A stretch of 64,000 nt of DNA from a virus. A program made the position numbers and the translations under genes. Numbering within the stretch: the first letter of the stretch is position 1; each line of letters starts with the position of its first letter. Below, piece after piece: positions 3,036 through 44,988 of this stretch. Location: positions 1 to 64,000 of IMG/VR virus record IMGVR_UViG_3300009514_000374; one strand, given 5' to 3'. The notes under the pieces are model-generated. The model made no database searches and was not told the DNA's origin. It saw nothing but the letters and a program-made list of their open reading frames with translations.

Positions 3036-4085
3036 ATGGCGCGCTCGTCGCATATCCGCGTGGCGGGTCGGTTCCGGCTCCGTACCGCCCGTGGGACCGT
3101 GATCCTCCCGGCAGGGTCCAAGTTGTTCCATGGCACGATTGAGCCGTTCTCGACGGCCCTGCGGCCTGGAGGGTACGACGCCGTGGCTTGGTTCGCTGAC
3201 GACCCCACGATCGCGCAGCTTTACATCCCTCGGGCGGGTGCTTCTACGATTGTGTCGAGCACCCACATCGCTCAACCAAGCCAAGACTCGACCATTCAGG
3301 CCATACAAAAGATGGTCGGGCTCCACTACTCCAAGGTCGAGTGGGATTCCGGGGGGCGGGTGAGAAGCTACCAGACGCCCGATGTCCCTCCGTGGAATCG
3401 GATCGGAGGCGTAGCGCGCTCACGGGTGCTCCGGGCTTTGATCGATGCGGAAAACGAGGTCAAGGCTTTCAGTCAGCGACGACTGGAAATCTCCCAAGCT
3501 CGGAAGCGGGGCGAGATAGACGCTGACGAGCGTATTGCCCTGACGACGGAAACTTTCAACGAGCAGGGCAAGGTTGAGGCACGGATCAAAGAGCTTGAGG
3601 TCGAGTACAACGCTCTCAACAACGGGTACGAAAAGGAAATCGAGAAGCGGCTGGAGGCGATGGGTTACGAGCCCTACCTGAAAGGCCGCCCCGGAGATCA
3701 GTCGTATCGCTTCTATTTGGAAGGTCGCCGCGTGCTCCCACCCGGAGGGAGTGCGGATGGGCGGCTATTCATCGGAACGACCACCCGCGACATGACCTTG
3801 TGGCTCAAGGCGCGTGGTGAGGGCGACCTGATGAATGTCCAATACCACGATGTTCGTGGTTTCCGTGACGCCCGCGACGAAGGGCTCGACGGCGTGATGA
3901 TCGATGATTTCGCGCAGAGCGAGGCACACGGGAACCTCGGACACTTGAGCGTCGGGTTGTTCTCCCCCGCCCTCAAGGACGTGCGGTTCAAACAGGTGCC
4001 TGCGACCTACGAGGAATACGACCGCAGCGGCAAGACCAAGGCGTATCCTCGCGGCGGCAACGTCGATTTCCACCGGCTGTTCTAG
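3036..4085 (+). CDS. Putative ADP-ribosyltransferase-like protein with N-terminal RVAGRF tag
   Basis: LPAGSKLFHGT, WFADD..AQLY, GLDGVMIDD pattern typical of polyvalent-protein ART folds; leader HIRVAGRFRLRTA. Confidence 0.5.
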   Translation: MARSSHIRVAGRFRLRTARGTVILPAGSKLFHGTIEPFSTALRPGGYDAVAWFADDPTIAQLYIPRAGASTIVSSTHIAQPSQDSTIQAIQKMVGLHYSKVEWDSGGRVRSYQTPDVPPWNRIGGVARSRVLRALIDAENEVKAFSQRRLEISQARKRGEIDADERIALTTETFNEQGKVEARIKELEVEYNALNNGYEKEIEKRLEAMGYEPYLKGRPGDQSYRFYLEGRRVLPPGGSADGRLFIGTTTRDMTLWLKARGEGDLMNVQYHDVRGFRDARDEGLDGVMIDDFAQSEAHGNLGHLSVGLFSPALKDVRFKQVPATYEEYDRSGKTKAYPRGGNVDFHRLF

Positions 4086-6115
4086 GACTCGTCGGTACGA
4101 CTCGCCAGCCAGGTCTGTACGTCGGACGTGGGCATGGGCTTGGCGATGTAGTAGCCCTGAGCGAAATCCACCCCGAGGGCCTTGAGGGTGTTCCAATGCG
4201 CCTTGGTTTCGACGCCCTCGGCGACCACGTAGATCCCAAGGTTGTGGGCAAGCTGCACGATGGTCTGGATGATCGATTTGGCGTGCTCACGCTCGCCGAG
4301 GCTGCGCACGAACGACTGATCGATCTTGAGCCCGTCGAGCGGAAATTTCATAATCGAGTGCAAGGCACTGTAGCCGGTTCCGAAATCGTCCAGATGGACA
4401 AAGAAATTCGCACGCCGCATCGCCTTCATCGTGGCGATGCTCGCCTGCTCGTCCTCCATGAGCGCCGACTCCGTGACCTCGACACCAATGGTGCCCGCTG
4501 GTAGGTCACGCGAGGTTACGGCCTTCTTGAATCGGCCGACGAGGTTCTTGTTCGTGAATTGTTTGGGCGACACGTTGACGCTCACCGAGACAGGTTCGGT
4601 GTATTTCCATTGGCTCACGTCGATGCACGATTGGTCGAGCACGAATTCCCCGATCTCGTGGATCAGGCCCGTGTCCTCTGCGACCGGGATGAAATCGACG
4701 GGGGACACCCACCCGCGCGTCGCGTGGTACCAGCGGGCCAGGGCCTCAAACGAAATGGGCTTGCCTGTCGCCATCGAGACGATGGGCTGGTAGTGAACGC
4801 TCAGGTCGTCCCGGTATAGCGCCGTTCGGAGATCGCGCTCGATGCCGAATTGCTTGGCAAGATCCGCACGCATCGGCTCGTCAAACACGACGTAGCGGTT
4901 CCGGCCCAACGCCTTGGCCCGGTGCATCGCAATATCTGCGTCACGGATCACATCCTCGGGCGCCTCGTAGGAGTCCGCAGAGGCCGTCGTGATGCCGATG
5001 GAGATGCTGTGCCTGTACTCCCGCTTCTCGATGCGAAACGGCTCCCTGAACGCCTCCACGACGCCCTGAGCGTAGGTCGAGGCGACGTGGGCCGGGACAC
5101 CCCGCACGAGGGCCACGAATTCGTCCCCTCCGTAGCGGCCTACCACGTCCTGACCGCGCAGATTCGCGGTGATCCGTTGGCCCACGGCCAGGAGAATTTG
5201 ATCGCCGACCGCGTGCCCTTGCGAGTCGTTAATGAATTTGAACCGATCAAGGTCGAGCAGCATGACCGCGAATCGGTATTCGGGGTTGGCCCGAGCCTTG
5301 TCGAATTCACGGCTAAGCTCGTCCAAGAAATGAAAGCGGTTCACGAGGCCCGTGACGCGATCAAACTGAGCGTCGTAGAGGATGCGCGCCTCGGTGAGCT
5401 TTTGCTTGTCCACGTCAGTCTGCGAACCGGCGATGCGGATGGCTCGACCTACCGAGTCCCGTTCCACGATGCCGCGCACGAGCATCCACTTGAACAAGCC
5501 AGCCTTGGTAGCGATGCGGTACTCGTGCTTGAACACGGGGGTCGCCCCGTTCACATGAGCGTCGAAGCGTTCCTTGAACCGGGGGAAATCGTCGGGGTGG
5601 ATCATCGAGAACCACTGCTCCGTGGACGTGACCTCCCCGCCTTGGTAGCCGACGAGGTTGCACCATCGCGGCGAAAAGTAGGCCATGCCGGTTTGGAGGT
5701 CCCAATCCCAGACGCCATCGCGGACGCCGTGGACCGTTCGCTGAAAACGCATCTCCATCGTTTGCAACGCTTGCAGATGTGAAGCTCTGTCGAGCGCGTA
5801 CAAGACGGCCCTCTCCAACAAGGCGGTCGTCAGGTTGTCGCGCGCGAGGTAGTCGGCCGCACCAGCAGCGACGGCATCGAGCCCTTCTTGTTCGTCGCCT
5901 GACGTGAGTGCAACGACGGGTTGTGTGCGTGCCAGATCACGGATGCCGTCAGCACCCGCGAGCGCGTAGTCGTACACGATCACACCACTCGTTGCGGGGG
6001 TGACAGGGGGGAGGGTGACGTTGAACTGCGACCGCACCGAATCGGCAAGGTACGATCGGATCAGGTCGGCCATTTGGTCGTCCCCCGAAATTACAAGCAC
6101 GCTTACCGGATCCAT
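4082..6115 (-). CDS. REC-PAS-GGDEF-EAL diguanylate cyclase/phosphodiesterase
   Basis: GAADYL receiver, DGVWDW..IHPDD PAS, DLDRFKFIND..RYGGDEF, YQPIV..FEALARW..EVTES..DDFGTGYS..KIDQSFV..EGVET..QGY. Confidence 0.95.
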   Translation of the reverse strand: MDPVSVLVISGDDQMADLIRSYLADSVRSQFNVTLPPVTPATSGVIVYDYALAGADGIRDLARTQPVVALTSGDEQEGLDAVAAGAADYLARDNLTTALLERAVLYALDRASHLQALQTMEMRFQRTVHGVRDGVWDWDLQTGMAYFSPRWCNLVGYQGGEVTSTEQWFSMIHPDDFPRFKERFDAHVNGATPVFKHEYRIATKAGLFKWMLVRGIVERDSVGRAIRIAGSQTDVDKQKLTEARILYDAQFDRVTGLVNRFHFLDELSREFDKARANPEYRFAVMLLDLDRFKFINDSQGHAVGDQILLAVGQRITANLRGQDVVGRYGGDEFVALVRGVPAHVASTYAQGVVEAFREPFRIEKREYRHSISIGITTASADSYEAPEDVIRDADIAMHRAKALGRNRYVVFDEPMRADLAKQFGIERDLRTALYRDDLSVHYQPIVSMATGKPISFEALARWYHATRGWVSPVDFIPVAEDTGLIHEIGEFVLDQSCIDVSQWKYTEPVSVSVNVSPKQFTNKNLVGRFKKAVTSRDLPAGTIGVEVTESALMEDEQASIATMKAMRRANFFVHLDDFGTGYSALHSIMKFPLDGLKIDQSFVRSLGEREHAKSIIQTIVQLAHNLGIYVVAEGVETKAHWNTLKALGVDFAQGYYIAKPMPTSDVQTWLASRTDES

Positions 6116-6164
6116 CCTAACAACGTCGCACCTATAGCCCGAATACGGGTGGGCGGCGCGCCCG

Positions 6165-6192
6165 CGTTTCGCTTTTTCGCCGATGGCGTAAG
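6165..6192 (+). promoter_or_regulatory. Variant copy of GGTTTC-N17-CGT motif (16-nt spacer)
   Basis: CGTTTC-gctttttcgccgatgg-CGTAAG upstream of ORF 6240. Confidence 0.4.
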
Positions 6193-6239
6193 CTGTGGTG
6201 AGGGTTCGTCACAACGTCGAGCCAACAAAGGACAGGAAC

Positions 6240-6647
6240 ATGACTACGAGAAAAGGCGTCATTGAAGGGGACGATCGTGTGCTCGCGGGCACGGGCTATG
6301 GGAGTAAGGACGACCCAAACGCCGTGCATGTAATCGATCGATCGCGTGACCTTCCGATCGAATTCACCGGACGAAAGATCGGGTACGGAAAGGTCGGCTC
6401 AGATCTTGGGTCCACGGAGGTCACGATCTACGTGACGGCAGGGGAGCAGATCGTGTGCCACGTCAGCCAAGTTCAGAGCCGCGACCGTCGCTTCTCCAAG
6501 GCCGAGGTATTCAAGGACGGCAAAGAAGCCCTGGAGTGGTTGCGTGACGGCAAGGGGGAGCTTGGAAAGGCCAGCAAGGATGCGTGGACCCAAGCCTGTG
6601 CCACCCACGAACCGATTGAACATCTGGCGCGTATCTCCGTCGAATAG
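6240..6647 (+). CDS. Hypothetical protein
   Basis: ORF with AGGA RBS, coding-like codon usage. Confidence 0.7.
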   Translation: MTTRKGVIEGDDRVLAGTGYGSKDDPNAVHVIDRSRDLPIEFTGRKIGYGKVGSDLGSTEVTIYVTAGEQIVCHVSQVQSRDRRFSKAEVFKDGKEALEWLRDGKGELGKASKDAWTQACATHEPIEHLARISVE

Positions 6648-6661
6648 GGTACGATCCCACC

Positions 6662-7006: not shown

Positions 7007-7033
7007 CCCGCGAAAATAAATTCGCCACGGCAC

Positions 7034-7241: not shown

Positions 7242-7315
7242 GGGGCACTAGCTCAACCGGATAGAGCGCGGAGCTTCTAACTCCGAGGTCGCAGGTTCGA
7301 TCCCTGCGTGCCCTG
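7242..7315 (+). tRNA. tRNA-Arg(TCT)
   Basis: CGGAG-CTTCTAA-CTCCG; CCA not encoded. Confidence 0.93.
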
Positions 7316-7356
7316 CCGCTACTGGACGAAAAAGGCCGTACTCGGCTCGTCCTTTT

Positions 7357-7449
7357 GGAAGGTCTAGCCGATGGCTGGCGACGGCACTCCCCTGCTAAGG
7401 GAGCGAGGTGTAAAAGCCCTTGCGGGTTCGATCCCCGCACCTTCCGCCA
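7357..7449 (+). tRNA. tRNA-Ser(GCT)
   Basis: CTCCC-CTGCTAA-GGGAG, long variable arm, GCCA end. Confidence 0.93.
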
Positions 7450-7462
7450 ACACACAACCCTT

Positions 7463-7555
7463 GGAGAGTCTAGCCGATGGCTGGCGACGGCACTCGGTTG
7501 GAAGCCGAGCGAGGTGTAAAAGCCCTTGCGGGTTCGATCCCCGCACTCTCCGCCA
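7463..7555 (+). tRNA. tRNA-Ser(GGA)
   Basis: CTCGG-TTGGAAG-CCGAG, long variable arm, GCCA end. Confidence 0.93.
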
Positions 7556-7618
7556 AATCACTCAAATATGATTGGTAATTCGCCGAAATGGCACCAAATC
7601 ACTCAAATATGATTGGTA
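7553..7618. repeat. 25-nt AT-rich direct repeat, two copies
   Basis: CCAAATCACTCAAATATGATTGGTA at 7553-7577 and 7594-7618. Confidence 0.9.
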
Positions 7619-7626
7619 CGAAACTT

Positions 7627-7717
7627 GGAAGGTCAAGCCGAAAGCAGGCGACGGCACCGGCTTTGAACCCCGGCGAGGCGCAAGCCCTTACGAGTTCGAC
7701 CCTCGTACCTTCCGCCA
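7627..7717 (+). tRNA. tRNA-Ser(TGA)
   Basis: CCGGC-TTTGAAC-CCCGG, long variable arm, GCCA end. Confidence 0.9.
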
Positions 7718-7794
7718 ACAACATCTGACGTTTTAACCCTGGAGAAGACCAACAACACATCAGAAATGACATCCACCGACATCACCGCAACTTT

Positions 7795-7884
7795 GGAGGG
7801 TCAAGCCGATAGCTGGCGACGGCACTGGTTTCGAGTACCAGCGAGGTTTAACCGCCCTTGAGGGTTCGACCCCCTCACCCTCCG
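7795..7884 (+). tRNA. tRNA-Ser(CGA)
   Basis: CTGGT-TTCGAGT-ACCAG, long variable arm. Confidence 0.9.
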
Positions 7885-7977
7885 CCCTCGTAGACACCGC
7901 GCTCGCGGGTCTACCGTTAGAAGCGCGGTGTGAGGTGCCAGGTTGGACGGCACCTGGCGAGGTCAAGCCGTCCATTT

Positions 7978-8054
7978 GTGGATGTAGCTCAGTTTGGTAG
8001 AGCGTCTGGTTGCCAATCAGAAGGTCGCGGGTTCGACCCCCGCTATCCACTCCA
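7978..8054 (+). tRNA. tRNA-Gly(GCC)
   Basis: TCTGG-TTGCCAA-TCAGA, TCCA end. Confidence 0.95.
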
Positions 8055-8055
8055 A

Positions 8056-8131
8056 GTGTGTGTAGCTCAGTCGGCAGAGCGTCTGCTTCCCAAGCAGAAG
8101 GCCAAGGGTTCGATTCCCTTCACATGCTCCA
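8056..8131 (+). tRNA. tRNA-Gly(CCC)
   Basis: TCTGC-TTCCCAA-GCAGA, TCCA end. Confidence 0.93.
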
Positions 8132-8187
8132 ACGGCGACCTGGATCACAGTAACGGAGGACAAGAAATTGAAGGACTAAACACAAAC

Positions 8188-8265
8188 GCGGCTGTAGCTC
8201 ACGTTGGCTAGAGCACCTGCCTTCCAAGCAGGGGGTAGAGGGTTCGACTCCCTCCAGCCGCTCCA
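8188..8265 (+). tRNA. tRNA-Gly(TCC)
   Basis: CCTGC-CTTCCAA-GCAGG, TCCA end. Confidence 0.95.
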
Positions 8266-8266
8266 A

Positions 8267-8342
8267 GGGGTCTTAGCTCAGTCGGGAGAGCATCTGCTTT
8301 GCAAGCAGAGGGTCGTCGGTTCGATTCCGACAGGCTCCACCA
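8267..8342 (+). tRNA. tRNA-Ala(TGC)
   Basis: TCTGC-TTTGCAA-GCAGA, G3:U70, ACCA end. Confidence 0.95.
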
Positions 8343-8343
8343 T

Positions 8344-8419
8344 GGGGACATAGCTCAGTTGGGAGAGCGTTGCCTTCGCACGGCAAAGGTCAGGGGTTCG
8401 ACTCCCCTTGTCTCCACCA
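8344..8419 (+). tRNA. tRNA-Ala(CGC)
   Basis: TTGCC-TTCGCAC-GGCAA, G3:U70, ACCA end. Confidence 0.95.
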
Positions 8420-8449
8420 CAAGGAACACACAGATCAACATGCAAATTC

Positions 8450-8525
8450 GGGGATGTAGCTCAGTTGGGAGAGCGCTAGCGTGGCACGCTAGAGGTCGAG
8501 GGTTCGATCCCCTTCGTCTCCACCA
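8450..8525 (+). tRNA. tRNA-Ala(GGC)
   Basis: CTAGC-GTGGCAC-GCTAG, G3:U70, ACCA end. Confidence 0.95.
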
Positions 8526-8580
8526 CCCGTACAACCATCAGGAAACCAAGGACCAGAATGTAGAACAAGGAGTCATTGTC

Positions 8581-8787
8581 ATGCGCACTCTCAACGCCGA
8601 TTTCAACGCCCGTACCTCAGACCGCGCCGCCATCGTGCTTGGGCACGATGCGGAGCGCAAGATGATCCGGGTTGGCATGAAGGTGCGACTGACTGACGAC
8701 TCGATTGAGGTCGAGGCCGTGGTCGTGCAGCGCGACGGCTTGCTCGTCGCCATCCCCGAGTGGGGCACCCTCGACTACCTCAACTGA
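8581..8787 (+). CDS. Small hypothetical protein
   Basis: AAGGAG RBS; MRTLNADFNART..; the longer ORF-track call overlaps tRNAs. Confidence 0.6.
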   Translation: MRTLNADFNARTSDRAAIVLGHDAERKMIRVGMKVRLTDDSIEVEAVVVQRDGLLVAIPEWGTLDYLN

Positions 8788-8896
8788 CACGACCGCGCTC
8801 GATAGCGGAGGAAAGCCATGAAGCAGTACAAGCAAATCTTGAACACACAAGACAGTCGATGGCGAGGATGGATCTGTTCTCTCAACTGATCCATCC

Positions 8897-8967
8897 AGGT
8901 CGCGGTCTGGGACCAGCGCGGACTCCAAATCTGCGCCTGCGGGGTTCGATTCCCCGGCGGCCTGCCA
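8897..8967 (+). tRNA. Non-canonical tRNA-Trp(CCA): minimal D-arm, 7-bp anticodon stem
   Basis: AGGTCGC|GGTC-TGG-GACC|A|GCGCGGA-CTCCAAA-TCTGCGC|CTG|CGGGG-TTCGATT-CCCCG|GCGGCCT-GCCA. Confidence 0.75.
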
Positions 8968-8972
8968 CTCGT

Positions 8973-9041
8973 CCAGGCTTGGGGGATGAGCGCTCATGGC
9001 CCCATCTTTAGCGAGATCCGGTTCGATTCCGGTAAGCCTGG
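8973..9041 (+). ncRNA. tRNA-like element with acceptor-like stem and T-arm but no recognisable anticodon arm
   Basis: CCAGGCTT/AAGCCTGG closing stem, CCGG-TTCGATT-CCGG T-arm, two internal hairpins. Confidence 0.45.
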
Positions 9042-9046
9042 TCCCT

Positions 9047-9123
9047 GGTCGGATAGCCAAGTCCGGTAAGGCGTCGGATTGCAACTCCGAAGATCGTCGG
9101 TTCGATTCCGACTCCGACCTCCA
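9047..9123 (+). tRNA. tRNA-Cys(GCA)
   Basis: TCGGA-TTGCAAC-TCCGA, TCCA end. Confidence 0.95.
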
Positions 9124-9133
9124 AGAAAGAGCC

Positions 9134-11127: not shown

Positions 11128-11203
11128 TGGGGTGTAGCTCAACTGGCAGAGCGGTGGGTTCTGGTCCCGCAGGTTGAGGGTTCGATCCCTTCCACCCCAT
11201 CCA
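11128..11203 (+). tRNA. tRNA-Gln(CTG)
   Basis: GTGGG-TTCTGGT-CCCGC, U1:A72, CCA. Confidence 0.93.
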
Positions 11204-11344
11204 AGCAACGGTGAAGCTCCCGGCTAGCAGGGAGTCGAGTCGTACCACGGCGGGCAACCACCCGACCGAATGGGAGAGCAGCGTCATGGGGTTAACACCG
11301 TGGCGGATGTGGCCGGACCCACTACCTCGCAGGTCCGGGCTTTT

Positions 11345-11419
11345 TGGGGAGTAGGCAAGTGGTAAGCCAGCGGTTTTTGGTACCGCCATGCGTGGGTTCG
11401 ATCCCCACCTCCCCATCCA
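11345..11419 (+). tRNA. tRNA-Gln(TTG)
   Basis: GCGGT-TTTTGGT-ACCGC, U1:A72, CCA. Confidence 0.93.
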
Positions 11420-11433
11420 AACTCGCTACACCT

Positions 11434-11501
11434 TGGGGTGTTGCTGGTGCTGGCGTTGGGCTTTGAACCCGACAGGAAGGGTTCGATCCCCTTCACCCCA
11501 T
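11434..11501 (+). tRNA. Non-canonical tRNA with TTG anticodon (Gln): short D-arm, 6-bp anticodon stem
   Basis: TGGGGTG|TT|GCTG-GTGC-TGGC|GTTGGG-CTTTGAA-CCCGAC|AGG|AAGGG-TTCGATC-CCCTT|CACCCCA-T; no CCA. Confidence 0.7.
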
Positions 11502-11729
11502 CTGAATGTCAGCCGGAGCGCGGTGCGGCCATCGTGCTGGATCCGAGTCCGGTATCGGCTCGCGCTGCGTTGTCCCATAGCCCCGGCAGTACGGGCACGG
11601 GAGTCGTATGTAGCCCGCCTCCAGGTAGAGCCACCAGAACGGAAAGGGCTGTGGAGGCGGCTTTTTGGCCCACGCGAATCGCTGGCCGCTCCCGCGACAG
11701 TGGATGCAGCGTTTGGGGATCGTGACCAC
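11493..11729 (-). CDS. Small CxxCxGxG zinc-finger protein
   Basis: CIHCRGSG and CPYCRGYG (DnaJ-type repeats); start uncertain. Confidence 0.55.
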   Translation of the reverse strand: MVTIPKRCIHCRGSGQRFAWAKKPPPQPFPFWWLYLEAGYIRLPCPYCRGYGTTQREPIPDSDPARWPHRAPADIQMG

Positions 11730-12147: not shown

Positions 12148-12918
12148 GTGAGAACGGCTGCACAGCGCGTGGCGAGACGGTATCGCGCCCGGAGAGAGCC
12201 GCACCTTGATTATTGGGGCCTGGACAAGCTCGTAGAGGGGGAGCCCACGGTCCTGTACCACGGCACCACCCGAATGTTCCGCAGGTTCGACCTCGGCGAA
12301 TCCCGAACGAGCCTGGTCGATCAATTCTACGGTGCGGGGATTTTCCTGACGCCGAAGAAAGAGGTCGCGGGGCGCTACGCCGACGCCAATCGGAACATCG
12401 GCTTCCCTCCCGAAATTCTCGATGATCTGAAACGGGCTAACCCGGATGCCGGGGCTTTCGCTCAAGCCCTCTATCGAAAAGGCCCCGCCGCGTGGGATGA
12501 ATTCGCGGTCGAGCAAGACGACGGAGGAATACGAGTGGACGAGGCTCAGGTTGACGGACTCGATCCTAATGAGATCGGCGACATGGTTGACTACGTGATC
12601 GGAAGCAAGACCAAGCCGGTCGGTTCGGACTCTGGCCCGCTCGCGCTGTTCAGCCAACAAACGGGCCTGCCATCGTACCTGTACGACTTGCTCGACACGC
12701 TCGGGCTCAACTCGTTCAAGTACCGTCCGAAGGTCTACAAGGTCAGGGTGAAGGTGGAGCGGCCGTTGGTAACAGACTCACGAACCGAGGCGAAGCAGGC
12801 TCGCTCCAAGGGTTACGACAGCGTAGTCTACTACGGCCGTGGGCTCGTGAACGACGTGCCGGAGGTCGCCGTGTTCGACCCCCGGAAGGTGTCCATCCTC
12901 GGCGTCGAGGCGTGGTAG
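12148..12918 (+). CDS. ADP-ribosyltransferase-like (ART-PolyVal-like) protein with N-terminal RVARRY tag
   Basis: LYHGT..FRRFD..YGAGIFLT..A..YA..GYDSVVY..EVAVFDP. Confidence 0.75.
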   Translation: MRTAAQRVARRYRARREPHLDYWGLDKLVEGEPTVLYHGTTRMFRRFDLGESRTSLVDQFYGAGIFLTPKKEVAGRYADANRNIGFPPEILDDLKRANPDAGAFAQALYRKGPAAWDEFAVEQDDGGIRVDEAQVDGLDPNEIGDMVDYVIGSKTKPVGSDSGPLALFSQQTGLPSYLYDLLDTLGLNSFKYRPKVYKVRVKVERPLVTDSRTEAKQARSKGYDSVVYYGRGLVNDVPEVAVFDPRKVSILGVEAW

Positions 12919-26541: not shown

Positions 26542-26889
26542 ATGACCGATCATCTCCGAGCCGCAACCATTCGACTGGCTCACGAAAACCCGGAGCTTCG
26601 GCCCCTTCTCCTGCCCCTCTTGACCGCCTCGGACGACGAGGACGAAAAAGAAGGCAGGTTTGAGGAAGGCGAGGACGTTCCCCTGGACGAGCTTCCCAAG
26701 GAGCTACAAAAGAACGTCACCGATCCTCCGCCCTCCGTCGAGAAGGTCAAGGAGAAGATCAAGAGCAAGGGGCAGAGCACGAACAAGCCGCCCGGCAAAC
26801 AAGCATCGCTCCGCGAGCAGACGATCCGTCTTGCGCACGCGAAGCCCCATCTCCGCGAGCACCTTCTCCCATTGCTCAAGGGCGAGTAG
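26542..26889 (+). CDS. Tagged protein, IRLAH tag at both termini
   Basis: LRAATIRLAHENPELRPLLLPLL ... LREQTIRLAHAKPHLREHLLPLL. Confidence 0.8.
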   Translation: MTDHLRAATIRLAHENPELRPLLLPLLTASDDEDEKEGRFEEGEDVPLDELPKELQKNVTDPPPSVEKVKEKIKSKGQSTNKPPGKQASLREQTIRLAHAKPHLREHLLPLLKGE

Positions 26890-26901
26890 TCGGAGGTAGT
26901 C

Positions 26902-27630
26902 ATGGCCTTGCGGAATGACCTGATCCGATTGGCCCACGCCAATCCTGAGCTTCGCGCGAAGCTGTTGCCCTTGTTGTCCGAGCCTCGGACTGCACGGATT
27001 GCTCCGCGCGACCCCATGAGCCCGGTGACGGAGCCCAACGAGTTGAGCATGGCCGAGTCGCGGCTCCGCCTCAACGTGCTCTACGACATCGCCAACAAAG
27101 GGGACAAGCGGACCAAGCGCTTCATGGACTCGCTTGCCGAGGTTTTGCGGCAGGGAGAGCGTTTCACTGTCAAGCAGTTGGACACGCTCAACAAGGTGAT
27201 CAGGGAGAGTCGCGCCCCTTGGTTTGACATGCACAACAACCGGCAAGAGGCGTTGGCTCTGTTCAACCCTCGTGATCCGTTGATCAAGGCCAAGCTGCTC
27301 CGGCAAAAGGCGATGTGGTGGATGCGGAACGCGACGATCCGCCTGGCCTACGAGAACCCGGAGCTTCGCTCCCACCTTTTGCCGCTGCTCAAGCAGGCGG
27401 ATGGTGACCTCGACAAGCTGAAAGAAGCGGTCAAGGCCGCAGGCTCCTACATGAACGTCGGGCGTGAGCTAAAGAAGCTCGGGATCAAGTTTACCTCGAC
27501 GCTCGGTGAAGGGCCGATTCCGGCGCACTACGTTGCCACTCTTGGCGGCAAAAAGTACGGGATCATTAACAAGAAATACGCCGACGACCCTGATTTCGTC
27601 ATCGGCGAAATCGCCGTGGGAAAGCTGTGA
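26902..27630 (+). CDS. Tagged modular protein, two IRLAH tags
   Basis: LRNDLIRLAHANPELRAKLLPLL; MRNATIRLAYENPELRSHLLPLL. Confidence 0.8.
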   Translation: MALRNDLIRLAHANPELRAKLLPLLSEPRTARIAPRDPMSPVTEPNELSMAESRLRLNVLYDIANKGDKRTKRFMDSLAEVLRQGERFTVKQLDTLNKVIRESRAPWFDMHNNRQEALALFNPRDPLIKAKLLRQKAMWWMRNATIRLAYENPELRSHLLPLLKQADGDLDKLKEAVKAAGSYMNVGRELKKLGIKFTSTLGEGPIPAHYVATLGGKKYGIINKKYADDPDFVIGEIAVGKL

Positions 27631-28274
27631 ACCTCCGATCCAAATTGATCCGGCTGGCCCACGCCAACCCCGAGCTTCGGCCACACTTGTTGCCGATCGT
27701 AGCTCGATCCGCTTCCGTCGAGTTGAGTGACCTGGCGGCTCACTACCTCGACCAAGCTGCCTTCACGGGCAAGCTGCCCTTTGGGGCCAAGGAGAACGCC
27801 GTCGCGGAATTGGTCGAAGCCGGGTACGTGAAGGAGAACCCACGCCAGCATTGGGCTGGCCGTGATTTCCTGATCACCCCTGCCGGGCGCAGCGCCGCAA
27901 GGGCCAATCGCTCGATGGGCAGGACCGCGATCGGTTGGAAGAGTCTGCCGAAAGGGTGGACACAGGACTCGGTGGAGAAATTCTGGTCCTCGTTGACCGG
28001 CGACGTGAAGCACAAGGTTACCAAGTGCATCAAACGCATGGAGGACAAGATGGACGACCCAGGGGCCTTCTGTGCGAGTCTCGCCGATCAGGTCGAGGGC
28101 TCAACCGACTGGCGCAAGGGGCCTCGCAAAAAGAAGCAGGCTGACGACGGCTCGTGGATGTCCATTGAACAGGTCAAGGCTGTGTGTCCGTCGTGTGCTG
28201 TTCGCATGGCCTCGTTGGGCATGAAACGGATCAAGACAGCCGTGTTCGTGGCGGCGATGGAGCGCGCGGGATGA
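27627..28274 (+). CDS. Tagged modular protein
   Basis: LRSKLIRLAHANPELRPHLLPIV; small modules incl. DPGAFCASL and CPSC. Confidence 0.8.
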   Translation: MNLRSKLIRLAHANPELRPHLLPIVARSASVELSDLAAHYLDQAAFTGKLPFGAKENAVAELVEAGYVKENPRQHWAGRDFLITPAGRSAARANRSMGRTAIGWKSLPKGWTQDSVEKFWSSLTGDVKHKVTKCIKRMEDKMDDPGAFCASLADQVEGSTDWRKGPRKKKQADDGSWMSIEQVKAVCPSCAVRMASLGMKRIKTAVFVAAMERAG

Positions 28275-31909: not shown

Positions 31910-32884
31910 GTGCGCCTCTACCATTTCACGAGCACGTTCCATCTCCAGTCGATCCTAGATCGCGGGATTTCCCGAGGGGATGTGCCCACGTCCCCTGGCG
32001 GTGGTTTCAACGCGCCGTGGCTCACGAAAAACAAGAACCCGCGAGGTCAAGCATGGGCCGGGGGCTCGTTCAAGACAGCGGTGCGTATCACCGTTGAGAT
32101 CCCCAACAGCGACCCCAAGCTCAAGCACTGGCCTGAGCTTGCAGCCGAAAAGAACGTCTCGGACTCGTGGTTCCTGGCGCTCGACAAGGCGGGTGGCGGT
32201 GGCTCGGACGACTGGTACATCTACATGGGCTCGATCCCCGTGAGCCGGATCAAAGAGGTCGAGGTCAACGGAAAGACGGTGAAGGTCGGGAAAGCGGTGG
32301 GCTTCCATGGATGGAAGATGTCACCAGAGTCGATGCGCTTGCCCGGCCCACAATTCACCGACAAGAAACCGATCCCGGCCGAGGACATCGAGGAAGCCGT
32401 TGAGTATCTGGACGAGGTAAAGCCCGGTGTGCTCGTCGGCTACAGTCGCGGCGGTGCCATCACCATGCTCGCGCTACGCAAGCACCGGGGCGCCAAACCC
32501 AAGGTGATCTACGTGGCGCCGGCTTGGCTCCGAGGGTGGGCTCATGCTCAGCCACCGCACACCCAAGGCGTGATCCTCCACGGGGACAAGGACAAGCACG
32601 TTCCCCTGGAGCACTCCTGTGAGCTTGCCAAGGACACGGGGATGCCGCTTCGCGTCGTGGAGGACAGGAACCACATCACGATCCTCAAGGACAAGCTCAA
32701 CCCGAATGCAGGCAAGCCCGTGCCGCGCTCGATGTTGGACGACTGTGTGAACAAGTTGCCTGATTGGGGCACGAGCGGCGTGGGCACCCCTGAGCAGGTG
32801 AAGCAGCAACAGGAATTCGCAGACCGCCTTGGGATGGCGGTCAAAGTAGCCGCCCGCTATCTCAACGGGGGCTCTCGCCGGTAG
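31910..32884 (+). CDS. ART-like N-terminal domain fused to alpha/beta hydrolase, C-terminal KVAARYL tag
   Basis: LYHFTS..SILDRGI..WLT; GYSRGG, HGDKDKHVP, NH triad. Confidence 0.7.
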   Translation: MRLYHFTSTFHLQSILDRGISRGDVPTSPGGGFNAPWLTKNKNPRGQAWAGGSFKTAVRITVEIPNSDPKLKHWPELAAEKNVSDSWFLALDKAGGGGSDDWYIYMGSIPVSRIKEVEVNGKTVKVGKAVGFHGWKMSPESMRLPGPQFTDKKPIPAEDIEEAVEYLDEVKPGVLVGYSRGGAITMLALRKHRGAKPKVIYVAPAWLRGWAHAQPPHTQGVILHGDKDKHVPLEHSCELAKDTGMPLRVVEDRNHITILKDKLNPNAGKPVPRSMLDDCVNKLPDWGTSGVGTPEQVKQQQEFADRLGMAVKVAARYLNGGSRR

Positions 32885-33686: not shown

Positions 33687-34544
33687 GTGCCGATTGATTG
33701 GGATACTCAGCCCCTCGGGCAAATGACCGACGCTTCTTTGGCGGACAGGATTGGTGTGTCCTCTGGAGTGGTTCAGTACCAGCGCGCGAAACGCAAGATC
33801 CGACCTTTTCATCCGAATCGATCGATCAAAGGGATCCAATGGGACGACCAACCGCTAGGGCAGGTTAGCGATTCGGATCTTGCCCGCCAACTTGGAGTCG
33901 CCCCTGCCGTGGTGTGTAACGCCCGAAAAAGAAGAGGGATTGTAGCACTCACTCCCCGTTGTGCAGAGGTCGATTGGCGTACCCTTCCCCTCGGTGATTT
34001 TCCCGATCAAGCGATTGCGTCTTTGATCGGTGTGTCGCAGCCGACCGTCACCCGCCATCGTAATCGGCTTGGAATTGCTCCTTGTAAGCATCCGTTTCTG
34101 ACAAAAGAAGGGCGCGCTGCCAATTACCCCGAAGCCCTAATTGATCTGTACTGGCACGAGAGGAATATCGAGCACGAATTCCAGGTCCCGATCGGCCAGT
34201 ACATCGCTGATTGGGTTTTGGAAGGCAGACAAGTCGTAGAGTATGCTGGATTTTCGGCGAGCCCTCGATGGGGCAAGGCTTATCGGGCTCGTTTGCGTGA
34301 AAAGGTTGGCTTTTATACCTCAGAGGGGTGGGAGGTCCGTGTGATCTGGCCCCAAGATCTCAAAGAATACGATCTCGGTTTTCGACCCAAACCTTGTCGG
34401 GATCTGAGGTCCAATGGGGTTGTCTGGTCGGAGCAGCCTTTGGGGCAGATGCTTGACACCGCCCTGGCAAAACACCTTGGCGTGACTCAATCCACGGTTA
34501 CACGATGGCGGCAAAAGCTCGGCATCCCAAGATACCATGCGTAA
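33687..34544 (+). CDS. Homing-endonuclease-like protein: four HTH repeats plus PD-(D/E)xK/Vsr-like domain
   Basis: W..QPLG..D..LA..LGV repeat x4; YIADW..VVEYAG..GWEVRVIW; visibly lower GC than neighbours. Confidence 0.7.
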   Translation: MPIDWDTQPLGQMTDASLADRIGVSSGVVQYQRAKRKIRPFHPNRSIKGIQWDDQPLGQVSDSDLARQLGVAPAVVCNARKRRGIVALTPRCAEVDWRTLPLGDFPDQAIASLIGVSQPTVTRHRNRLGIAPCKHPFLTKEGRAANYPEALIDLYWHERNIEHEFQVPIGQYIADWVLEGRQVVEYAGFSASPRWGKAYRARLREKVGFYTSEGWEVRVIWPQDLKEYDLGFRPKPCRDLRSNGVVWSEQPLGQMLDTALAKHLGVTQSTVTRWRQKLGIPRYHA

Positions 34545-35139
34545 AGCAGCTAAAGCCGATTTGGTGCCACAGAGGCAACCTTCCCAATTTTCGTGCATGA
34601 CAACATCCATGCAGATGTGTCTGCTCGCGCTCGGAATTCCTGCCGCAGAAGCGACGTATGAATTGGTCAACAAGGTCATGGGCGCCAAGCCGATGAATGG
34701 CGCGACGTGGGAGGATGCCGCCGCATGTGCTCAGCACTACGGGTGCCGTGCCACGTTGGTCGTACCCTCGACCATTCGTCAGATGAAGGAGTGGACTGAC
34801 GCCGGGACGCCCGTGATGATCGCGTGGAACCCCGAGGGCCGCGACTGGTCGCACGCCTCCGTCGTGTTCCACGTTGACGACGACCTCACCGTTCACGTCG
34901 CCGACCCGAATATCCCAGACCCCGACGAGACCGTGCGGGTCGTACCCAAAAGCGAATTCTATTCCAAGTGGTCCGAAAAATGGCCTCGCTACCTTGTGCG
35001 TCGCCCGGCGATGGCGATCGAGCGCGAGATCAGTGATGGCAAACAGGTCATGGCAAGCATGGCCCGTACCGCTTCGACCCGTTCCGTGGGGGCCACGATC
35101 GTAGCTGCCCGCTTCCGAGCCAGACAGGAGAAACCATGA
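34537..35139 (+). CDS. C39-like papain-fold peptidase with C-terminal VAARF tag
   Basis: Q...FSC, WSHASVV, VADPN, EFYSKW. Confidence 0.75.
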   Translation: MRKAAKADLVPQRQPSQFSCMTTSMQMCLLALGIPAAEATYELVNKVMGAKPMNGATWEDAAACAQHYGCRATLVVPSTIRQMKEWTDAGTPVMIAWNPEGRDWSHASVVFHVDDDLTVHVADPNIPDPDETVRVVPKSEFYSKWSEKWPRYLVRRPAMAIEREISDGKQVMASMARTASTRSVGATIVAARFRARQEKP

Positions 35140-37139: not shown

Positions 37140-37454
37140 ATGTCCGACGCAAGTGCCAAACGAATCGCCGCTGCGTACCGGAGGACCAAACCCACCCCTC
37201 CGGGGTTTCGGCATGGGTACGTTGCTACGGTGACCGTCGAGCTATACGCTACCTCGGAAGCGCAAGCTCGGCGTCAACTAGATCGGTTTCTGGCCGGTGG
37301 CGACAAAACCGTGGCGCGGCATGTGATCGACACCCTTCACACGGGCTCGATCGGCGGTCGGAACCCCCCGGAGCCACGATGGACCCCTTCCGAGTGGGAG
37401 GGGTGGGATCCATGGGAGGGGTACGGCGACAAGCAGGCGGCCCCCGACGATTGA
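37140..37454 (+). CDS. Small protein with RIAAAY tag
   Basis: MSDASAKRIAAAYRR. Confidence 0.6.
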   Translation: MSDASAKRIAAAYRRTKPTPPGFRHGYVATVTVELYATSEAQARRQLDRFLAGGDKTVARHVIDTLHTGSIGGRNPPEPRWTPSEWEGWDPWEGYGDKQAAPDD

Positions 37455-39076: not shown

Positions 39077-40372
39077 ATGAGCGCCTACCTCACAAGCCTT
39101 TTTCGCCGGGCCTCCAAGACCCCTGTGACGGAGCCCTCCCACCTACGGGTGGCAGGACGCTACCTACGGGCCTATCTGAGCCCGAAAACAGACCTCTTGG
39201 CCCGCGTCCAGATGCTTGAGGGTGCGGCAGACGTGCCCCGAGGGGCTTGGACACGGCGGCTCGTACCGGCCGAGGCCAAGGACTATTTCGGGGAGGGCCT
39301 GGCCCCGGAGTGGACGCTTCGATCCGATTCAGGGCTCGCCAATGCAGCCGTCGAGGCAGTCAAAAAGAACATCGGTGAGCACGGCACTCCGGGTGTGATC
39401 CGATCCAAGCTCCGCGATATGTCGGCCGACGAGATGGTGAATTCGTTTATTGGGGGGTTGTGGCCTTGGCCCGCCCCCTCGTACTACGAGTGCCTCCAGT
39501 GTGGCAAGCGGTCCAAGAAGGACATTTCTAAGTGCCCCAAGTGCGGGGGAGAGGTTGAGCCGAGGGGTGCTGAGCACTCGATTATGAAGGCACCGCCCTT
39601 CTACGCCATCGGACAGAAGATGGACGAGCCGACCATCGAGGGTTTGCGTGACGGCTCGATCAAACCTGACCGCTTCACCCCCATTGTGTACTCGTGGGTG
39701 CAGCAACGTGCTCGTGACGAGCTACGCAAGTGGATGCGCGCTGTGGGCCGGGGCAGGGGACATGAGACTGAGTGGCTCCCCTCGGGAACCTCGCGCTTTG
39801 ACGTGATGGAAACCGACGCTGAACCCACCAGCGTTCTGTCTCGGATTCTCGGGATGAAGCACAACCCCAAGGCGAAGCGCCTGCGCAAGCTCTTGCGGGC
39901 CATCTCGGACGAGAACCCCCGCCGCGCCGATGCCGAGGTATTCAAGGAATTCCTGTCGATCATCGAGGGGATGTCGGCCGGGGAAACCTCCGTGGAATTC
40001 GGCCGGGTGGATGAACGCGGTATCCCGCGTGGGATTTCTGGAGTCATCGCCGAGCGCATGGGCAAGTCCCGGCAATTTGCTGGTCAGGCTCTCAAGCGGT
40101 CCTTTGAATTCTTGGCCGAGCGAGCCCAACGCAAACCGCAGCTAAAGCGTCTGTGGGAGGAAATCAGGGATGCCGAATTTGGAGCCGGGGAAATGGGTCG
40201 TTCCGCTTCGGCTACCGAGGAATTCCTGGCGGACCTCCAAGCATGTGGCGACGAGGTAATGGCTGCGTGCGACGCTGACGAGCACGAGGCTGATCGCACC
40301 GTCACTGTTGGACCTCTGGAGCTTACGATCGGGAAATTCCCCGGAGCGGGGTCGGGTGCCTACAGCAAGTAA
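39077..40372 (+). CDS. Divergent sigma-factor-like protein with RVAGRYL tag and zinc ribbon
   Basis: FTPIVYSWVQQRARDELRK (region 2.3-2.4-like); VIAERMGKSRQFAGQALKRS (region 4.2 HTH-like); CLQC..CPKC. Confidence 0.5.
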   Translation: MSAYLTSLFRRASKTPVTEPSHLRVAGRYLRAYLSPKTDLLARVQMLEGAADVPRGAWTRRLVPAEAKDYFGEGLAPEWTLRSDSGLANAAVEAVKKNIGEHGTPGVIRSKLRDMSADEMVNSFIGGLWPWPAPSYYECLQCGKRSKKDISKCPKCGGEVEPRGAEHSIMKAPPFYAIGQKMDEPTIEGLRDGSIKPDRFTPIVYSWVQQRARDELRKWMRAVGRGRGHETEWLPSGTSRFDVMETDAEPTSVLSRILGMKHNPKAKRLRKLLRAISDENPRRADAEVFKEFLSIIEGMSAGETSVEFGRVDERGIPRGISGVIAERMGKSRQFAGQALKRSFEFLAERAQRKPQLKRLWEEIRDAEFGAGEMGRSASATEEFLADLQACGDEVMAACDADEHEADRTVTVGPLELTIGKFPGAGSGAYSK

Positions 40373-40769
40373 ACCTTCGGCGCTTCGGGTTGCTCGGCTT
40401 TTCACAGCCCGTGCTGCCGAGGGCGACTGCTACGAGGCCGCCGCGAATTACATCGTGGAGCGCGGCCTTGGGCTATGGGGCGGCAAGGGCAAGCCCAAAT
40501 CAGGCTTGATTCTCGTCCATGGCGAGGTAGCGGGCCAAGGTCCGTTGGAGGGTGTCAATTTTGGGCACGCGTGGGTGCTCGACGGCAACACCGTGATCGA
40601 CAACTCCAATGGTCGGAACCTGCGGATGCCGAAATCCGCTTACTACGCGCTCGGCAAGATTGACGAGATCAACAATTTCCACGAGTACGATGTCGAGACG
40701 GCCCGACACATGCTGCTTCGGTTCAAGACCTACGGGCCGTGGGATCTGGAAACCTCGACAGGTCTGTGA
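40356..40769 (+). CDS. Transglutaminase/papain-fold protein with RVARLF tag
   Basis: GDCYEAA..LVHG..GHAWVLDG..VID (C-H-D); GTG start inferred. Confidence 0.65.
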   Translation: MPTASKPSALRVARLFTARAAEGDCYEAAANYIVERGLGLWGGKGKPKSGLILVHGEVAGQGPLEGVNFGHAWVLDGNTVIDNSNGRNLRMPKSAYYALGKIDEINNFHEYDVETARHMLLRFKTYGPWDLETSTGL

Positions 40770-41551
40770 TGCCGAAGATTCTTTTCACTGGACCCTCGCG
40801 TAAGCGGAAGCGGATCAAGCGGAAGCTGATCGAGGAAATGGAGCACCCGGAACTGCGGGTCGCGTCTCGATACCTCCAAGCGCGTGGGATGTACGACGAG
40901 GCGGAGCGGGAGCTTCGCAAGAAAGACCCGGATGGCTTCTGCATGGCGTTGCCGGGGACGGTCGTGTTTCAGCACTTGAATCTGAGCCCGCGCGGCAAGG
41001 TGATGAAGTGGTTTTCGATCCACGATCCCCCAACAGCCAGCGCCAAGGTCGTTGGGCACATCGCGGGGCTCGTGCAGACGAATGCCACGTTTGTCGTCGG
41101 GGAAGCCGGCTACAAGCAGGTGTCCGTGCTCGACAAGCCCAAGTTTGTGTTCGCCGGGGCGGTCGGAAAGCTCGTCGCCGTGGACGGTGCCGGCGGGGAT
41201 GAATTCGGAACCGTGCCCTCACGGGACCAGGAATGGATCCGATACAACCCCAAAAAGCGCGACGAAGGTCTGATCGCCCGATGGTTCTGCCGCCAGAATC
41301 CTGAGACTGGCGAATGGGACATCCCCGTGATCAAGGCACGTCGCGTGGTCGCACGAGGGCACAGGATCTACGCGAGCGGCATCACGGACATGCCCCGCAA
41401 ACACTACGAGCCGCTGCTTGAGCAGTTGGGGCTTGGCGCCTACCAGGCGGCCTCGATCAAACTGGCACACGAGGACAGCGAGCACGGGCCGCACATCCTC
41501 GCCATTCACCGAGAAGCCTTGCGTGCTCTCGATGGGGAACCAAACACATGA
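40769..41551 (+). CDS. Tagged hypothetical protein
   Basis: PELRVASRYL near N-terminus; degenerate IKLAHED..HGPHILAI at C-terminus. Confidence 0.65.
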   Translation: MPKILFTGPSRKRKRIKRKLIEEMEHPELRVASRYLQARGMYDEAERELRKKDPDGFCMALPGTVVFQHLNLSPRGKVMKWFSIHDPPTASAKVVGHIAGLVQTNATFVVGEAGYKQVSVLDKPKFVFAGAVGKLVAVDGAGGDEFGTVPSRDQEWIRYNPKKRDEGLIARWFCRQNPETGEWDIPVIKARRVVARGHRIYASGITDMPRKHYEPLLEQLGLGAYQAASIKLAHEDSEHGPHILAIHREALRALDGEPNT

Positions 41552-42600: not shown

Positions 42601-42603
42601 TTT

Positions 42604-44988
42604 GTGCCGACGATGCGAAAGATGGCCGCCCGTGTTGCGCGGCGGCACTTTCGCCGCGTAGCGGGCATCTTTGAGGCGCCTCCAAAGCTCGTCAAGGACG
42701 TAACCGAGCAGGTCACGCAGGTCTACGCGGAGCACATTTGGGCGAAGGCTGAGTATGAGATCCAAGAGCGCAACTCGGCCTATCATTGGGGTCAAAAACA
42801 GATCCGTGCGGCGATCAAGCAAGGGGAGGCCGAGGCGAAGGTCTTTTTGCAGGAAAACGACGCACAAGTGTTTATCGACGCCGGGTGGCACGAGATCGAT
42901 GAAAACAACGGCGAGTACACCACCCTTGCAGTGACCGCTGTCCCCATCGTTGAACGCGAGCAGAGTGGTCGCACAACGATCAAATGGGCTGCGGTTTGGG
43001 TGACGGGAAGGCGGACCTTCGGAGAACCTACGCCAGAAATCCCCGAGATGCCGGAGTACCCGAAGCTGCGGGACGAAGATTACGTTTACTACCCGTACCG
43101 AAGCGAGTATTCGACCGACGAAGAGTACGAACGAGCCCTTGCTGAACACCCCGGAAAAGTAAAAAGGTACGAGGAAAAGCAGAAGGCCCAAGAAGCGTGG
43201 CATGACCTCAAGGCACAGAACGATTGGGAATTCGAGCTTACGAGCTATGGCGGCTGGCAAGAGTTTGATACGCCAACTGCGGCCATCGTCGCGGCCAGGA
43301 ACAGTCCTATCAGGGGCGACAGCGAGGATTACAACACGGGCAGTCTGACTCAATCGGATATGTCGGCGGCAAAGGTCTTTGCGGAGATGGTCAAGGTAAC
43401 GCACGCGCGAGCACAGCGATACCTCAAGCGCGCTCGTGAGGCCATGAAGGACAAGCGAGCCGATGAAGCCTGGATGCAACGGATCGTGGATCTTAACCTC
43501 ACGATCAACGAGGCGAAAAAGTACGCCTCCATGCCCGATCGTAAATCTTGGACGATCGAACGCACGATCAAAGTAGACCTGACTGGTTGGAAATACGTCG
43601 ATGAAAAGCTCGGCGAATTGGAGAGCGAGTACGTCGAGGCTGCCGCGCACAACGAACGCGAATTGGAGGCGCTTGATCGTGACGTTCGTGCTCTGCGGGA
43701 AGATCAGATAACGAGAGTCTTTGAGTTCAAAAACGGGCCTCGCCGTAAACCGTGGAGGTTCCGAGTGGAGCGTGTATCGAAGGGCTACATGGAGGCTGAC
43801 AGGCGAAGGGGAGTTTACCTGATCTCGCACAACTACCACGGCTCTTGGACTACTGATGACTCCGCGACTCTTTCGCCCGAGAGGGTGCTCCGCGACATAC
43901 ACCGTGAGGTTCCAGCGCCCCTTTTGGACGAGGCCGCCAAACTACGCGAGTACAAACGTGGCAAGGTCTTGGCGGGGCAATCGATCAAGCTACGCATAGA
44001 CTTTGAAGGGCACCGCCGAGGTTGGGGAGGGTGGTGGAGCCCGCAGTCGAGGGAGATGAAGATCTTTTTCTATGACGAGAAGATCAAGCTCGACCCGGCC
44101 TCCTTCAAAGAAGCGATCTGGGAAATTCGGCGAATTTCTCGGCACGAGTCCCAACACGCTGGACAGACCATGCTCAATCATTGGCTTGAGCTTCACGTTT
44201 CCGGCTACAAGCCGGGTCTCCCGTCGCGTTCAACGTGGACCCCAAGCGTTGATCCGTGGGGGGCGGTTCGTCGTGAACGAGGAAAGCCAATCGTAGACCC
44301 GGAGACCGTTTACGAGGAATTCGGCAAAGACGAGGATTGGGAACAGGTCCACCATCACCACCGCGAGGTTGAGTTCTACACGAACCTTGCCGATGACATT
44401 GACAGGTTTGAGGCTACGCTGCGCAAAGTACCCAAGCCCTATTGGCCTGCTTATGCCCGCGTCGTTGTTGGCCTTGCTGAACCACAGCCCTTGAAGGATG
44501 AAATCGCCGAGCGTTACGGCTCCCAAAAATATCGTTTCCTGCAAGGCCCGACCACGGCTATGCCGGAGATGAACCGTGACTCGTTGGGCTGGCGCTTTCG
44601 CAGGTTCAAGCAAAAGAACAAGCCGAAATGGCGCAAGGCGGTCAAGGAATTCTACAACGAGCTTCGCAGGCGGGGGTATCGACTCCAAGGCGGCATCGTC
44701 CCCATGTCTCTCGACTACGTGAAGATCGAGGACGCGCTCAAAGAATGGCGTGATCGGTTCTATGACAAGACCGGCGTCTGGTATACGTGGCGTGACGTGC
44801 CCGGCGTGAATCTGCCCCCGAAAAAGCGTGTCGAGCAGGGGTGGATTTACGGGATGTTCGATGTGACCAATTTCGATCCTGACGAGTTGCACAGAGGCAA
44901 ACACGTCACACCTGACTCACCGAAGCCGGGGCGACAGCGGATCCGCGTCTTGGTTGGACCTACGGGCAAGGTCCAGAAGATCCGATAG
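42604..44988 (+). CDS. Large tagged protein with HExxH metallopeptidase-like motif
   Basis: AARVARRHFRRVA leader; RHESQHAGQ..EVEFY. Confidence 0.65.
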   Translation: MPTMRKMAARVARRHFRRVAGIFEAPPKLVKDVTEQVTQVYAEHIWAKAEYEIQERNSAYHWGQKQIRAAIKQGEAEAKVFLQENDAQVFIDAGWHEIDENNGEYTTLAVTAVPIVEREQSGRTTIKWAAVWVTGRRTFGEPTPEIPEMPEYPKLRDEDYVYYPYRSEYSTDEEYERALAEHPGKVKRYEEKQKAQEAWHDLKAQNDWEFELTSYGGWQEFDTPTAAIVAARNSPIRGDSEDYNTGSLTQSDMSAAKVFAEMVKVTHARAQRYLKRAREAMKDKRADEAWMQRIVDLNLTINEAKKYASMPDRKSWTIERTIKVDLTGWKYVDEKLGELESEYVEAAAHNERELEALDRDVRALREDQITRVFEFKNGPRRKPWRFRVERVSKGYMEADRRRGVYLISHNYHGSWTTDDSATLSPERVLRDIHREVPAPLLDEAAKLREYKRGKVLAGQSIKLRIDFEGHRRGWGGWWSPQSREMKIFFYDEKIKLDPASFKEAIWEIRRISRHESQHAGQTMLNHWLELHVSGYKPGLPSRSTWTPSVDPWGAVRRERGKPIVDPETVYEEFGKDEDWEQVHHHHREVEFYTNLADDIDRFEATLRKVPKPYWPAYARVVVGLAEPQPLKDEIAERYGSQKYRFLQGPTTAMPEMNRDSLGWRFRRFKQKNKPKWRKAVKEFYNELRRRGYRLQGGIVPMSLDYVKIEDALKEWRDRFYDKTGVWYTWRDVPGVNLPPKKRVEQGWIYGMFDVTNFDPDELHRGKHVTPDSPKPGRQRIRVLVGPTGKVQKIR

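Follow-up and report, generated by a model that had tools for sequence, protein, structure and literature searches.

The first 64,000 nucleotides of the viral record IMGVR_UViG_3300009514_000374 (the window) raise the question of why enzymes of unrelated fold should carry one and the same short peptide close to their ends. The record comprises 141,007 bp, has a GC content of ~61% and is estimated to be 30% complete, which implies a phage genome of ~470 kb. The peptide, of the general form Pro-Ser-x-x-Arg-Val-Ala-x-Arg-Tyr/Phe-Leu, is almost certainly a real, portable docking peptide under selection. With a probability of about 0.5, it may further be a docking label that loads enzymes into the phage head. 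Genes are named below by the position at which they begin.

We called 145 genes (42,720 residues) in the 141-kb record by codon-usage score. The nine strings in which the original prediction had recognized a tag on enzyme termini are all present where it placed them. Across the proteins of the record, the pattern VAxR[YFH] occurs 14 times compared with 1.47 expected from per-protein shuffles, none of 300 of which reached 14, and in the stretches up to 45 residues from a protein end 10 copies are observed against 0.44 expected. The looser expression originally put forward, for which enrichment over shuffled sequence was to be expected, does show it (14 against 1.56 overall and 12 against 0.48 near termini). 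The stricter R[VI]AxR[YFHW] is found nine times against 0.25. It matches only five times in the other five reading frames, which hold about five times more sequence drawn from the same GC-rich DNA and are also rich in Arg and Ala.

The strict expression was defined on this genome and hence was tested unchanged on independent DNA of relatives, 25 loci fetched via an alignment of the 12148 family (465 kb, GC 49–63%, from contigs of 8 to 536 kb). 12148 is an ADP-ribosyltransferase (ART), and the test covered the non-ART proteins of these loci, 126,000 residues in all. They contain 25 matches, or ~18 once near-duplicate loci are removed, whereas 0.49 are expected and the shuffle maximum is 3. Conversely, a scoring matrix built from the relatives only finds 18 sites in this genome that exceed the score which a shuffled proteome attains once, and 9 that exceed the score attained 0.05 times per proteome. 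That the motif reflects chance in Arg/Ala-rich, GC-rich proteins, or else a DNA-level repeat, is extremely improbable. It is short and was defined after the data had been seen, and a scan of words in the terminal 40 residues, the crude but unbiased form of a check suggested at the outset, placed VA.R only 12th (p = 7e-4 uncorrected, 1985 words), words of a second, longer tag coming first. The significance of the motif therefore depends on the longer pattern and on cross-validation in relatives. The excess is nevertheless 10- to 50-fold, and the shuffles, the other reading frames and the independent relatives together reject a composition artefact; cross-validation in the relatives has already refuted chance. 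The codons are not conserved either. All synonyms of the Arg, Val and Ala codons are used at the fixed positions R, V, A and R, so that selection must act on the peptide and not on the DNA, and a DNA-level repeat was rejected.

One peptide genuinely recurs at eight of the nine sites. The ninth, KRIAAAY in 37140, is unsupported: two core residues deviate, the open reading frame (ORF) is itself doubtful since its GC by codon position is ambiguous, and neither relatives, in scans of viral contigs, nor a Pfam match could be found for it. The copies in 12148, 39077, 40769, 3036 and 40356 (matrix scores 15.6–25) are strong, and those in 42604, 34537 and 31910, which are backed by homologues, moderate.

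The consensus from 66 unique contexts is (M/R)(R/K)-P-S-A-S-R-V-A-[S/A/R]-R-[Y/F/W/H]-L-x-A-[R/K], frequently with a Pro 6–8 residues beyond the tag. It carries a net charge of ~+2.8 over 16 residues and, wherever the alignment is informative, a helix is predicted for it. AlphaFold2 models of 12148 and 3036 place the tag outside the fold of the enzyme domain. In the former, residues 4–16 form a helix separate from the core (pLDDT, the model confidence score, ~60), and in the latter residues 1–17 are disordered and outside the fold (pLDDT below 50). An amphipathic membrane helix was considered and rejected, the hydrophobic moment being no greater than that of shuffled sequence. A Tat/Sec signal was rejected as well: the maximum 15-residue mean hydropathy after the tag is at most 1.2 in 10 proteins, and C-terminal and internal copies exist.

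Copies lie within ~10 residues of either protein end or at the joints of long multidomain proteins. The claim that the tag marks termini thus stands for the ends but was incomplete, since domain joints are used too. In 3036, 12148, 39077, 42604 and, outside the window, 92876, the nearest in-frame stop is 0–6 codons upstream of the start (in 3036 it immediately precedes the ATG), and the tag is consequently as near the N terminus as the frame permits. Extreme C-terminal tags in this record are those of 31910, 34537 and 136103.

How the tag is placed within a family was counted in 119 homologues each of the ART 12148 and the C39-like peptidase 34537. Among the ARTs, 43 carry it within 40 residues of the N terminus and none has it C-terminally, and the conserved core starts ~15 residues past it. 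Four have a long LIRLAH-type tag in the same place instead, 21 a Y-x-Y-D-R-R leader, and a few have none of these. The C39-like family, 60–77% identical in relatives, has the opposite polarity: 51 of the 119 end in the tag and none begins with it, a median of 5 residues follow the tag aromatic, and the tag is still terminal when an extra domain intervenes between it and the core. Individual genomes contain both the short and the long tag, which led us to reject the idea that each genome uses one tag type as its dialect. The resemblance first proposed between the two tags comes down to an R-[VL]-A core; what truly connects them is their mutual replacement on ART orthologues. On this comparison of homologues the tag is a swappable cassette, modular and interchangeable with the long tag. 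The alternative ART leader, in full M-x-Y-[S/D/T]-Y-D-R-R-(V-A)-x-K and present in ~21 of the 119 (for example P0008, P0014, P0031 and P0046), was found on ARTs only in the loci examined.

The tagged proteins are varied. 12148 belongs to ART-PolyVal (PF18760, Pfam 1.5e-10), and its model gives weak matches to PARP domains in a fold search. 3036 has an ART fold of the MbcT/RES-like type, into which a coiled coil is inserted; the match to MbcT (Z 10.3, root mean square deviation 3.6, 139 of 183 residues) spans both halves of the globular part. Profile–profile comparison gave a probability of only 10% for a relationship between the 3036 and 12148 families. Untagged homologues of 3036 are common, and only the closest, P0242, retains the tag. 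Several others (P0243–P0252) end in a basic tail, L-K-R-K-L-M-R, which may be another terminal motif. 31910 joins an N-terminal domain to an alpha/beta hydrolase (Pfam Abhydrolase_6), whose homologues have RVASRH, KVASRW or RVAHRY at the equivalent domain edge. Its N-terminal 120 residues (window 31910–32270) are a domain in their own right, which has no Pfam match; more than 120 homologues of it, 120–260 residues long, stand alone and are untagged. 34537 is a C39/C70-like cysteine peptidase by Pfam, and 40769 is Phage_L5_gp82-like (PF25735), its C terminus being a degenerate stretch resembling the long tag. 42604 has an HExxH motif at residue 514. The cargo classes first named therefore hold for the ARTs 12148 and 3036, the hydrolase, the C39-like peptidase and the HExxH protein, whereas two are weak leads: sigma-like 39077, which is a zinc ribbon (Pfam DUF7129) with a Sigma70_r2 lead in the Atlas below trust level, and transglutaminase-like 40356, assigned by its Cys/His/Asp motif pattern only. 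Single-protein scans of viral contigs found no close relatives of 42604 or 31910.

Table 1. Tag copies of the window and the head-gene block downstream of it (positions in the record; the window is its first 64 kb).
Feature	Position	Strand	Context	Matrix score
RVAGRF	3057..3074	+	residues 8–13 of gene 3036–4085 (349 residues)	21.3
RVARRY	12166..12183	+	residues 7–12 of gene 12148–12918 (256 residues)	25.0
long LIRLAH-type tag	26542..28274	+	at ends of three genes	
KVAARY (variant)	32843..32860	+	12 residues from C terminus of gene 31910–32884	6.6 (low)
IVAARF (variant)	35098..35115	+	12 residues from C terminus of gene 34537–35139	9.1
RIAAAY	37161..37178	+	ORF 37140–37454; not accepted	
RVAGRY	39146..39163	+	residues 24–29 of gene 39077–40372 (431 residues); P-S-H-L precedes	21.7
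RVARLF (variant)	40386..40403	+	near start of gene 40356–40769 (137 residues)	15.6
RVASRY	40856..40873	+	near start of gene 40769–41551	21.6
RVARRH	42631..42648	+	residues 10–15 of gene 42604–44988 (794 residues)	9.8
large terminase	84344		head block	
portal	86980–88980		head block	
three long proteins	89007, 92876, 93967		head block, from portal to head protease	
head maturation protease	98501–99955		head block	
very acidic protein, scaffold position	99977–101269 (= L008:15977–17269)		head block	
major capsid protein	102138		head block	

The same modules occur fused in relatives. There the strict motif recurs in proteins of 700–2350 residues, several of which have it at joints, and the protein L026:4860–9419 has five copies. 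The tag and linker of 42604 align with an internal tag and linker of the latter (45% over 42 residues, E 8e-6); the HExxH region shows a weak alignment to this polyprotein too. A tagged protein of 728 residues in L034 contains an InPase domain (PF18823, 3.6e-35), and one in L023 combines DUF5661, TopoIB and GNAT. In the head block of this phage, 89007 joins 2H and nucleotidyltransferase domains with an intein, and its internal tags at residues 256 and 440 precede the 2H domain (299–400) and the nucleotidyltransferase domain (474–593), respectively; the tags of 93967, at residues 5 and 344, flank TopoIB. Two or more effector domains share a polypeptide in 89007 and in the relatives L023, P0279 and P0283, whereas window genes mostly have one recognized catalytic domain each, to which 31910 adds its N-terminal domain.

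A full-library search with 31910 found its hydrolase fused to a 40356-like domain in P0282 and P0284, to TopoIB in P0283 (50% identical to that of 93967) and in the more distant P0279, and, by eye from a short C-terminal match, to a 42604-like domain in P0285. The 40356 protein is 60% identical to the C-terminal domain of P0282 and P0284, in which this domain and the hydrolase are joined with no tag between them. In this phage the two are separate genes and both new ends are tagged, a single comparison that fits an address label better than a cut site. Hence the link to phage polyvalent proteins, at first drawn from the classes of cargo, is now direct, and comparison with the relatives' proteins supports the view that the tagged genes of the window are separated modules of what are single polyvalent proteins there. 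As had been anticipated, no MuF domain (PF04233) was found in the 141 kb, ~30% of the genome, portal neighbourhood included.

We propose that the tag would bind one shared phage partner inside the assembling head, be it the scaffold, the capsid interior, the portal or the protease. Unrelated host-takeover enzymes would thereby end up inside the capsid and enter the host together with the DNA. The putative cargo would comprise NAD-using ART-fold enzymes, peptidases, a hydrolase and the HExxH protein and, from outside the window, TopoIB and enzymes that repair RNA ends. What we infer is the partner, the destination in the capsid, the injection and any cleavage. Four observations suggest the destination: the most heavily tagged proteins are encoded between the portal and head protease genes; window modules are fused to those head-block proteins in relatives; the domain repertoire is that thought to be injected in polyvalent proteins (PMC5512222); and the charge of the tag complements that of the protein in scaffold position, the most acidic of the record (29% Asp+Glu). 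A somewhat bolder statement, to which we give slightly less than even odds, is that the tag is a transferable virion-loading label which works at either protein end, is used with the LIRLAH tag by a large uncultured clade of huge phages for a dozen or more enzymes per genome, and leaves polyvalent proteins free to split into genes that each carry an address of their own.

Several observations weigh against a head-loading role. In the relatives the terminal bias is by itself not significant, 11 of 25 matches lying within 45 residues of an end against 32% expected; internal copies in long proteins are about as frequent as terminal ones and fall at domain joints wherever domain limits can be checked. 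Most cargo genes of the window lie at least 57 kb from the capsid gene (102138–103010) and lead directly into replication genes. The untagged phage Tunturi_5 likewise has an acidic scaffold, and no tag was found in Tunturi_5 or phage G, cultured relatives by capsid protein (48% and 38%), the three pattern matches in those scans falling in stop-filled frames. The closest relative in culture, judged by the capsid protein, infects Acidobacteriota. P0282, with 927 residues, is entirely without the tag, which is thus not needed on every such protein. Finally, no conserved cleavage motif occurs in the 20 residues after the tag in the 66 contexts, where Gly-Gly follows in only ~5 by eye, and no Lys/Arg-x-Ala cut site was found next to the tags. 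Yet ~80% of the head proteins of phage SPN3US are uncut by its head protease (PMC10052503), so that loading without cleavage would be unremarkable.

All the evidence for modularity fits equally well a docking peptide for a shared partner outside the virion, such as a chaperone, an inhibitor of toxic enzymes or an intracellular assembly hub. Many tagged genes adjoin replication rather than head genes, and several cargos are potentially toxic enzymes. However, such a putative partner would leave unexplained both the position of the most-tagged proteins from portal to protease and the fusion of window modules to the head-block TopoIB, and we consider it rather unlikely. Processing, in which a phage protease (the head protease or the tagged C39-like peptidase) cuts at joints and terminal copies are leftovers of gene fission, would account for the several copies at joints of long proteins, five of them in L026, and for a highly conserved papain-like peptidase within the tagged set; self-processing has moreover been proposed for polyvalent proteins (PMC5512222). 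Yet across hundreds of homologues terminal copies are kept to within ~5–6 residues of the end, and other leaders can take their place, which would not be expected of a vestige, and the removal of 3–10 residues would have no evident purpose. With no conserved cut-site motif beside the tag, and with the three G-K-E-A repeats of the scaffold-position protein absent from tagged proteins, we regard processing as distinctly improbable. The repeats are confined to that protein, and they were rejected as a protease-site link.

A generic basic helix that binds membranes or nucleic acid, or a terminal signal for degradation by a host protease, would suit the net charge of the tag and its terminal location. 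The invariant V, A and aromatic positions point instead to a specific protein contact, the hydrophobic moment is not above that of shuffled sequence, no hydrophobic stretch follows the tag, and internal copies do not fit a degradation signal; this explanation seems slightly less probable even than processing.

Alt of phage T4 is an ADP-ribosyltransferase. Like the internal proteins IPI–III, it bears the T4 capsid targeting sequence (CTS; Mullaney and Black 1996, via PMC10052503). As with the CTS, the tag described here is a short peptide, independent of cargo fold and common to unrelated proteins of one phage, and its natural swapping mimics the transfer to foreign proteins by which the CTS was defined. 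Whereas the CTS is an exclusively N-terminal leader of ~10 residues that ends in a gp21 cut site, this tag occurs at either end and at joints and has no evident cut site. The two have no sequence likeness, and this tag is on many more families, within a large uncultured clade. The repertoire resembles that of polyvalent proteins (ART-PolyVal, InPase, peptidases, GNAT, TopoIB and RNA-repair enzymes; Iyer et al. 2017, PMC5512222), which are thought to be self-processed, and relatives encode proteins of this type, partly in the head-gene block. In this phage, unlike polyvalent proteins, most modules are encoded by genes of their own and are tagged individually, and no MuF-type anchor was found in the 141 kb.

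Encapsulin cargo-loading peptides dock inside a shell of HK97 fold, and the cargo genes adjoin the shell gene. They too are short terminal peptides found on unrelated enzymes at either terminus, but they differ in sequence; here the proposed shell is a DNA-filled phage capsid and most cargo genes are distant. In the Dar system of phage P1, DarB and its partners are packed in the head with dedicated helper proteins; they are not known to share a widely distributed linear motif. Large defence-countering enzymes delivered with the DNA from a myovirus head are a feature of P1 and are what we propose here. Tunturi_5 has a DarB-like gene by annotation but is without the RVAxRY tag. A full-text literature search for RVASRY, RVAARY, RVARRF and strings of the long tag found no paper in the library searched, and a comparative paper on jumbo phages (PMC7824862) mentions no such tag or recurring joint peptide.

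If the head-loading label is real, one could read from sequence alone which proteins uncultured huge phages inject, the breakup of polyvalent effector proteins into independent genes would be explained, and 14 residues would serve as a handle by which proteins of choice could be packed into phage capsids. Whatever its destination, the tag offers a clear example from nature of a short linear motif that is portable and is exchanged between enzymes that are not related.

A search of 50,697 phage records with the ART and C39 families gave a sole match, the uncultured LR745208.1, and no cultured tag-bearing phage. A search of 185,579 prokaryote species, each represented by one genome, turned up no homologue of the ART. 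In Tunturi_5, gp321 (L036:2790–6878, 1362 residues, annotated as a MutT/NUDIX hydrolase) resembles the ART-PolyVal core of 12148 in two stretches and sits in the structural-gene block of this cultured, untagged relative. Tunturi_5 gp332, at the same position as the acidic protein of Table 1, has three [S/T]-K-E-A-K-V repeats.

Automatic gene calls can remove leaders of this kind, as in 12148, whose public call (P0001, 214 residues) begins at an internal Met 42 residues late, so that the tag is lost and the ART domain cut into. The public call for 34537 (P0121, 180 residues) also begins at an internal Met. Between the 93967 polyprotein and the head protease, an uncalled ORF (G000, 97936–98500) has a tag-like L-R-V-A-E-A-F and a zinc-ribbon-like Cys pattern. 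No promoter or timing signal is evident near the tagged genes, which are tightly packed.

Elsewhere in the window, a 1238-residue protein (28184–31900) weakly matches a ParB-like nuclease; a long tag lies inside it (~29387), as do repeats in its DNA. Adjoining the tagged 3036 on the other strand is a PAS-GGDEF-EAL protein of 677 residues (4082–6115, −), an enzyme of cyclic-di-GMP turnover. The window also has 20 tRNA genes in three clusters (258–964, 7242–9123 and 11128–11502), which comprise Asn, Glu, Arg, Ser (four), Gly (three), Ala (three), Trp, Cys and Gln (three).

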